A program made the position numbers and the translations under genes. 64,000 bases of DNA, taken from the NCBI RefSeq assembly GCF_057098645.1, contig NZ_CM169472.1; one strand, given 5' to 3'. Positions within the stretch are counted from its first letter, which is position 1. Every line of letters begins with the position of its first letter. Below the pieces are notes generated by a model. It was not told the origin of the DNA. It searched no databases and was given only the letters and a program-made list of their open reading frames with translations. This document shows positions 2,560-2,907 of this stretch, piece by piece.

Positions 2560-2907
2560 TCAGGCCAGCGGTGGAGTCTTCAGAGAACCCGTAATTATTC
2601 CCGGTAGTTTTCCTCTGTAGGTTATCAACACATCCTGCGCCTCTAAAATTACGGGACGCTTTTCCGGTAACGGACCATCCCCTTCACATAACCCGGCAGC
2701 AACATCCATGAAAAACTGCTTCGCCTGCTTTTTCGCCTCAGCTTCGTAAAACTCCAGCGTGGCACCTTCAGTACGGTCAAGACTAATCGCCACATCTGGC
2801 AACAACAGTGACGGATACCCACCAATTTCCAGTGCCACAGTAACAGTAATCTTATCCGGGTAATTATTTATCCCTTTAACAACCAGTTCGTATTTTTTCT
2901 TCATCAC
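2560..2907 (-). CDS. Hypothetical soluble protein between holin and endolysin
   Basis: 115-aa ORF, co-directional and abutting the holin stop; no transmembrane segment, no recognisable motif. Confidence 0.4.
   Translation of the reverse strand: MMKKKYELVVKGINNYPDKITVTVALEIGGYPSLLLPDVAISLDRTEGATLEFYEAEAKKQAKQFFMDVAAGLCEGDGPLPEKRPVILEAQDVLITYRGKLPGIITGSLKTPPLA

Follow-up and report, generated by a model that had tools for sequence, protein, structure and literature searches.

Extra genes lying between genes that are adjacent in related phages are known as morons in the sense of Hendrix and Juhala. The soluble antiholins RIII of T4 and LydB of P1 offer a precedent for small proteins that regulate lysis timing, and the phage RNase E modulators Srd of T4, gp0.7 of T7 and Dip of phiKZ, like the host proteins RraA and RraB, are small proteins that bind RNase E and change RNA decay. 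The closest described relative of the gene studied here is ydfR of the Qin prophage of Escherichia coli K-12 (b1555, P76160), which lies between essQ (class II holin) and rrrQ (lysozyme), 4 nt after the holin stop. In a two-hybrid screen by Göpel et al. (RNA Biol 2026; PMC13232886), residues 1–72 of K-12 YdfR were recovered, which are exactly the core conserved throughout the family. BACTH signals with RNase E 1–597 were obtained both for residues 1–72 and for the full-length protein, and K-12 YdfR was reported to bind the catalytic N-terminal half of RNase E, as RapZ does (PMC13232886). Strep-YdfR co-purified Rne1-598-FLAG together with much DNase-resistant nucleic acid, while overexpression left growth unimpaired and changed few transcripts (PMC13232886). 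The co-purification was performed in vivo without nuclease treatment, and the authors noted a possible contaminating protein (PMC13232886). Because nuclease treatment was omitted, the contact between YdfR and RNase E could be bridged by RNA. As a small RNase E-binding protein, K-12 YdfR can be likened to T4 Srd, T7 gp0.7, phiKZ Dip, RraA, RraB and RapZ. The literature on DUF1327, YdfR, essQ/rrrQ and Stx-phage lysis cassettes yielded nothing else on this gene, beyond a brief mention in a comparative genomics study of O55:H7.

In the 64,000-nucleotide stretch of DNA analysed here (the window), an earlier note had described an unassigned 115-aa gene at 2560–2907, wedged between a holin and an endolysin. 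The existence of this frame was confirmed, and the evidence that it is coding goes well beyond that for a chance ORF. The ORF listing places it at 2560..2907 on the minus strand, with 115 aa if translation begins at a GTG; the alternative ATG at 2904, which gives 114 aa, is the start chosen by PGAP on identical EDL933 DNA. The sequence also bore out that the frame abuts the holin stop and precedes the endolysin gene R on the same strand, in the order S, ydfR, R on the minus strand. The holin stop TAA (2911–2909) is separated by 1 base from the ydfR GTG and by 4 nt from the ATG, and a GGAGAG within the final holin codons, 7 nt upstream of the ATG, is the likely ydfR ribosome-binding site. The features of the locus are as follows.

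3274..5127, minus strand: NanS-p-type sialate O-acetylesterase (DUF1737, SASA and DUF6645 by Pfam; RefSeq annotation of homologous loci)
2909..3124, minus strand: class II (S21-type) pinholin, 71 aa (PF04971, E 3.5e-32; PGAP 'class II holin family protein')
2560..2904, minus strand: ydfR-family CDS, 114 aa, stop codon 2560–2562 (ORF listing, PF07041, phrog_406)
2689–2904, minus strand: DUF1327 core, residues 1–72 (AF2 core model, pLDDT 90.4)
2563–2688, minus strand: variable tail 'module B', residues 73–114 (pLDDT <50)
2510..2559, minus strand: spacer from ydfR to the endolysin ATG at 2509, 50 nt, 34% GC
2227..2509, minus strand: 5' part of the R21-type SAR endolysin gene, about codons 1–94 (PF00959; 96% identical to Min27 R 1–93)
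917..2226, minus strand: IS629/IS1203 (IS3 family) in the endolysin gene (Pfam HTH_Tnp_1 and rve; 3-bp CTC target duplication)
1846–2172, minus strand: orfA of IS629/IS1203, within the element at 917–2226
959–1849, minus strand: orfB of IS629/IS1203, within the element at 917–2226
1775–1891, in IS629/IS1203: ALIL frameshift pseudoknot (Rfam, 120 bits)
663..916, minus strand: 3' part of the endolysin gene, about codons 95–177 (PF00959; 99% identical to Min27 R 95–177)

The gene cannot be called unassigned, as it belongs to the catalogued DUF1327/YdfR family and is annotated in RefSeq by the family name. The protein matched Pfam DUF1327 (PF07041) with 156.7 bits against a cut-off of 25 (E 1.8e-46, residues 2–113) and phrog_406 with E 1.2e-64, and 100% identical DNA in many O157:H7 genomes (window 2510–3260) carries the RefSeq name 'YdfR family protein'; NCBIfam had no model for the window protein. 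It is nearly certain that the window gene is an intact member of this family. The family is already known and named, with one recent biochemical lead on its function. The statement of the earlier note that the function is unknown was essentially true, although it passed over both the catalogued family and the RNase E interaction reported for the K-12 homologue (PMC13232886).

Few proteins belong to the family: when 1.84 billion representative proteins were searched exhaustively with a profile, only 97 clusters were returned, and the named members were all from Enterobacterales (Escherichia, Shigella, Cronobacter, Yersinia, Serratia, Sodalis, Proteus and Salmonella phage ES18). An alignment of 26 diverse cores had gaps of no more than one residue in any sequence, and Y5, Y53 and E54 were invariant. 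Within E. coli, a 751-nt query covering ydfR and the holin gene (2510–3260) found matches in 3089 of 5426 complete genomes, with a median of 2 matching places per genome and a maximum of 15, and the ydfR-holin stretch was present at ≥99% identity in 305 E. coli records. A YdfR homologue was also found in at least 63 records of Stx1a-, Stx2c-, Stx2- and Stx2a-converting phages, including H-19B.

When compared with K-12 YdfR, the window protein shares the Pfam family, the 72-aa core in an ungapped alignment (47% identity over residues 1–74) and the place in the cassette. The tails are unrelated ('EKLSEKVESYLQHQ...' in K-12 YdfR, 'GLCEGDGPLPEKRPVILEAQ...' in the window protein), and K-12 ydfR overlaps the start of rrrQ, whereas the window has the 50-nt spacer instead. 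Binding to RNase E has been reported for K-12 YdfR, not for the window protein (PMC13232886).

The cassette around the gene, which had been taken for a lambda-type one, proved to be of the phage 21 type, with a PF04971 pinholin and a SAR endolysin. The pinholin has the dual start Met1/Met4 in MYQMEK (MYQM motif), as in S21-71/S21-68 of phage 21. The endolysin is of the lysozyme family, and its N-terminus, MNAKIRYGLSAAVLALIGAGASAPE, is hydrophobic and resembles a SAR signal. Since IS629 splits the endolysin gene after about codon 94, the lysis cassette must be regarded as inactivated. The homologous endolysin gene of EDL933 is interrupted by an IS66 element instead (locus L001, 8782–9000). Since a late-operon gene, nanS-p, lies upstream, ydfR can be assigned to the late transcription unit of a prophage that resembles Stx phages. 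The locus itself is a cryptic prophage beside ypjA and gabDTP, and the closest genomes were O145:H28 and O157.

Several RNA features were observed upstream of the cassette. A terminator-like hairpin with a 12-bp stem and a T-run separates the stop of nanS-p from the start of the holin gene (3163–3191, minus strand); Q antitermination presumably lets transcription pass it. AgvB, an anti-GcvB sRNA, was found between the Q region and nanS-p at 5275–5336 on the plus strand (Rfam, 96.5 bits), overlapped by a weaker AsxR match, and in the same interval STnc100 at 5337–5527 on the minus strand (Rfam, 144.7 bits), with strong terminator-like hairpins at 5369–5348 and 5250–5229. Such an sRNA region, close to the late promoter, is typical of EHEC prophages. 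Inside the ydfR ORF, an Rfam search of window 1–8000 found no RNA element.

The window gene is stranded, with its endolysin neighbour split by IS629 and its prophage a cryptic remnant beside ypjA. These circumstances would suit a decaying or spurious frame in a dead cassette, as would the C-terminal tail, which is mosaic and predicted to be disordered, and the homologous copy of O145:H28 RM12581, which is flagged as incomplete by PGAP. But the frame is intact and recurs in the E. coli records of near-identical sequence counted above, the core is folded confidently by AF2, and K-12 YdfR accumulates and can be purified (PMC13232886). Family dN/dS is also below 1: against diverged homologues (Nei-Gojobori), it was 0.17–0.42 for the core (residues 1–72) and 0.08–0.50 for the tail. 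The exception was the core of Stx1a phage Stx1_499, where 14 non-synonymous and 2 synonymous differences gave a dN/dS of about 2, numbers too small to carry weight. In that comparison, which spans window 2689–2904 and positions 1501–1716 of locus L026, the excess could reflect diversifying selection or a recombination patchwork, and the changes are too few to decide. Taken with the intact frame and the constraint on the family, a non-functional ORF is highly improbable.

The window protein could be divided into two parts. Residues 1–72 are the sole segment common to all family members, and the family is modular: the window protein consists of this core and a 42-aa tail 'GLCEGDGPLPEKRPVILEAQDVLITYRGKLPGIITGSLKTPPLA', phage Evi carries the core alone, and many E. 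coli copies have 176–287 aa, with added modules that are separate PHROGs elsewhere (phrog_36381, phrog_26186). At the same chromosomal locus, O145:H28 RM12581 has a YdfR variant of 264/265 aa (locus L034, 3911–4708), in which the core is followed by a phrog_36381-like module and others; it is annotated by PGAP as an 'incomplete' pseudogene though the long ORF is open. Between this variant and the endolysin gene, RM12581 has a further ∼500 nt that carry no annotation and include an antisense ORF of 233 aa. The interval between S and R is a hotspot of mosaic change.

It had been claimed that the protein is soluble, and this holds: the highest 19-residue Kyte-Doolittle mean was 1.18, so that no TM segment is predicted, and a signal sequence is lacking. 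The protein is acidic, with a pI of 5.46 as a whole and 5.28 for the core. The AF2 model of the core, built with the 26 diverse cores, reached the pLDDT listed above and a pTM of 0.78 and showed strands at residues 5–14, 18–27 and 37–43 followed by a long helix at 50–74 (beta-beta-beta-helix); in the full-length model, the tail stayed below a pLDDT of 50. Structure prediction, which the earlier note had proposed, thus gave a confident core fold, but the fold searches were uninformative. Nothing significant was found by structure search in BFVD, and the sequence search of PDB chains returned noise (best E 0.24). The core did not show the features of a dsRBD-like domain, namely alpha-beta-beta-beta-alpha order, a basic RNA-binding surface and a significant structural match. 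With PADLOC defence profiles at E ≤0.1, neither the window protein nor K-12 YdfR gave a match.

Comparison of related cassettes showed that the gene is optional. In the Stx2a phage Min27, S is 95.8% and R 96–99% identical to the window sequences, and R begins 4 nt after the S stop, without ydfR; in phage 21, the type phage, whose holin is 74.6% identical, S is likewise followed directly by R. The alignment of the S–R junctions showed a clean indel of ∼400 nt with a conserved right boundary, and this right-hand boundary of the insertion is the 50-nt spacer, which is conserved with H-19B and phage Evi. Among phage records, this holin type occurred in 436, whereas only 101 had a homologue of YdfR (∼23%). 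The composition of the gene also differed from that of its neighbours: GC was 47.1% for ydfR (44.9% for the core; GC3 0.47), as against 54.9% for S (GC3 0.70) and 54.8% for R (GC3 0.58).

Homologues were found at quite different places in other phages. The core lies between tail genes I and J in Yersinia, between the tail assembly chaperone and tape measure genes in Serratia, and between tail genes M and L in Sodalis, ES18 and one metagenomic contig; in two viral contigs it follows the tape measure gene, in Proteus it is upstream of the holin gene, and in Cronobacter it comes after Rz. In every locus examined, the core is on the strand of the flanking late genes. The ES18 homologue, gp24, was called a 'possible moron' by its depositors. 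Like the window gene, gp24 has the DUF1327 core on the late-gene strand, inserted between genes that are adjacent elsewhere, but it consists of the core only and is paired with the convergent gp25 (phrog_10490), whereas the window gene has no partner. Stx phages have other optional genes among S, R and Rz as well, for instance bor and, in phages of the Min27/933W type, ant, which lies between R and Rz. These belong to other families and occupy other junctions than ydfR, and bor has the opposite orientation and is annotated as being expressed in lysogens.

The optional presence in near-identical cassettes and the homologues in tail modules argue for a moron-type accessory gene and make a dedicated lysis role unlikely; ydfR is very probably accessory and not required for lysis. 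Of the two functions that the earlier note had put forward, a moron and a lysis regulator, the former is therefore supported, by the clean insertion, the GC contrast and the ES18 gp24 annotation. The gene is nevertheless not a textbook moron. Insertion between adjacent genes and distinct composition were observed, but its own promoter and terminator were not: a consensus scan, which is crude and gives only a weak negative, revealed no minus-strand promoter-like site near ydfR, and downstream of the gene the same scan gave no convincing terminator; the one stem seen was weak, had 6 bp and lay inside the ORF.

The alternative function is that of a cytoplasmic factor which would bind the cytoplasmic tail of the pinholin or affect release of the SAR endolysin, and so delay or sharpen the triggering of lysis. 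Within E. coli, the position of the gene makes a lysis-related role conceivable: in 7/7 further phage or prophage cassettes inspected, all of which carry ydfR (Evi, mEp460, PhiR42_1, H-19B, 2H10, Stx2 phage 86 and K-12 Qin), the gene directly follows an S21-type holin, 4 nt past the stop. With its ribosome-binding site in the 3' end of the holin gene, YdfR would be made along with the holin. The small protein encoded beside a holin and a SAR endolysin recalls T4 RIII, P1 LydB and the SAR-endolysin regulators of Mu; yet YdfR has no homology to these proteins, is not linked to holins outside E. coli and is absent from near-identical cassettes.

The translation signals of R are also affected by the insertion. 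In Min27, R uses the GGAGAG in the 3' end of the holin gene (locus L021, 2716–2721), and the ydfR-carrying cassettes have an AT-rich conserved spacer …GATAAACCCTGATAAATATCC-ATG before the endolysin gene, without a Shine-Dalgarno sequence; none was found upstream of R in the 50-nt spacer of the window either. Insertion of ydfR therefore passes the GGAGAG ribosome-binding site from R to ydfR, and translation of R may be lowered or changed. That R lacks its Min27 Shine-Dalgarno sequence in ydfR-containing cassettes would be in line with an effect on lysis timing. So would the Keio ydfR deletion, a match in the supplementary files of the envelope-leakiness (CPRG-positive) screen of Paradis-Bleau (PMC3879167). 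However, ydfR is directly upstream of rrrQ in K-12 Qin (locus L006, 4055–4366), so this phenotype may be a polar effect of the cassette, with the kan cassette possibly driving the downstream rrrQ lysozyme gene.

Against a lysis-timing regulator, the gene is missing both from Min27, despite its closely matching S and R, and from phage 21, the paradigm pinholin system, and is carried by only about a quarter of the phage records with this holin (the ∼23% given above). Its distant homologues in tail modules have no adjoining holin, the protein has no TM or SAR segment, and it showed no similarity to PHROGs of the 'lysis' category or to Pfam lysis families. The survey of related cassettes thus revealed the very absence from otherwise identical cassettes that the earlier note had named as telling against its proposal. 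The lysis-regulator option was not supported, and we consider it very unlikely.

The stand-alone cores had a further feature in common. In 19 of the 22 loci with a stand-alone core of 72–91 aa, a small convergent ORF was observed 4–29 nt downstream, which belonged to phrog_25324 in 7 cases, to phrog_10490 in 10 and to neither family in 2. The loci behind this pairing are L002 (3001–3540), L035 (2429–2981), L007, L010–L020 and L027–L029. The pairs occur in phages of E. coli, Salmonella, Yersinia, Serratia and Proteus at different late-operon junctions, and the core sub-families track the partner families. In the E. coli phage Evi, the order is S, core, convergent partner, R, and in Salmonella phage ES18 the pair is gp24/gp25. 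That core and partner stay together across genome positions and genera suggests a functional coupling. PADLOC gave no match for the long forms or for most of the convergent genes; two convergent genes had weak, partial matches (12–16 bits).

No remnant of a partner gene or of the long-form C-terminal module was found in the window, and the partner is absent from the H-19B and K-12 copies too. By BLASTP, phrog_36381, the C-terminal module of the long forms, had no significant match to the convergent partners. The window gene might then be the orphaned half of a two-gene module, which lost its convergent partner, gained a tail, and decayed or was re-purposed. Besides the recurrent pairing across genera and genome positions, with Evi and ES18 gp24/gp25 among the pairs, the window shares the right-hand boundary sequence of Evi without the partner, and the end of the window ORF (TPPLA-stop) falls in this boundary sequence, which is consistent with a deletion. 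On the other hand, E. coli has many intact copies without a partner, and these are under purifying selection; the partner-less K-12 YdfR still interacts specifically (PMC13232886). Neither partner family has a known function, an interaction with the core is only a hypothesis, and the convergent ORFs could be independent morons in a common insertion hotspot. We therefore regard an orphaned half as rather unlikely.

One form of such a module is a possibility in which the partner is expressed in the lysogen and the late-expressed core is its antagonist. Stated in full, Enterobacterales phages would carry a hitherto undescribed mobile module of two genes that moves between late-operon junctions and in which the DUF1327 core is the late-operon member. 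The partner (phrog_25324 or phrog_10490) would be expressed by the prophage and the core made only in the lytic phase, where it would counter the partner or redirect a host target such as RNase E. The window gene would be a partner-less derivative with a tail in place of the partner. We consider this scheme distinctly unlikely.

For the accessory gene that we prefer, the reported properties of K-12 YdfR suggest a mechanism. The gene would be transcribed with the Q-dependent late operon, and YdfR would be translated from the ribosome-binding site inside the last holin codons. By analogy with K-12 YdfR, the core might bind a host macromolecule, namely RNase E at its N-terminal catalytic half, perhaps with RNA as well, and RNA decay might be modestly tuned while the long late transcript is expressed. 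Binding of the window core to RNase E (at its catalytic half), to RNA or to both in the course of late expression is a tentative proposal, possible but not probable. The acidic core (pI 5.3) is atypical for an RNA binder, overexpression barely altered the transcriptome, and the K-12 protein has only 47% core identity; these points count against the mechanism. It is equally conceivable that a small acidic protein of this kind mimics nucleic acid on RNase E and does not bind RNA. As a whole, the best explanation of the window gene is an accessory, moron-type gene that is not part of the lysis machinery and is directed at RNase E or RNA by homology, and we judge the chances of this combined reading to be about even.

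On its face, the window gene is an ordinary, catalogued gene, and what value it has lies in its commonness, as the ydfR-holin stretch has matches in over half of the complete genomes of E. coli. Its transcript is shared with stx and the lysis genes. Its optional presence, the homologues in tail modules and the recurrent convergent partner point beyond lysis timing, to binding of RNase E or of the partner. If the RNase E lead is true for the phage alleles, YdfR would be a widespread prophage factor touching host RNA decay during induction and during toxin and virion production.
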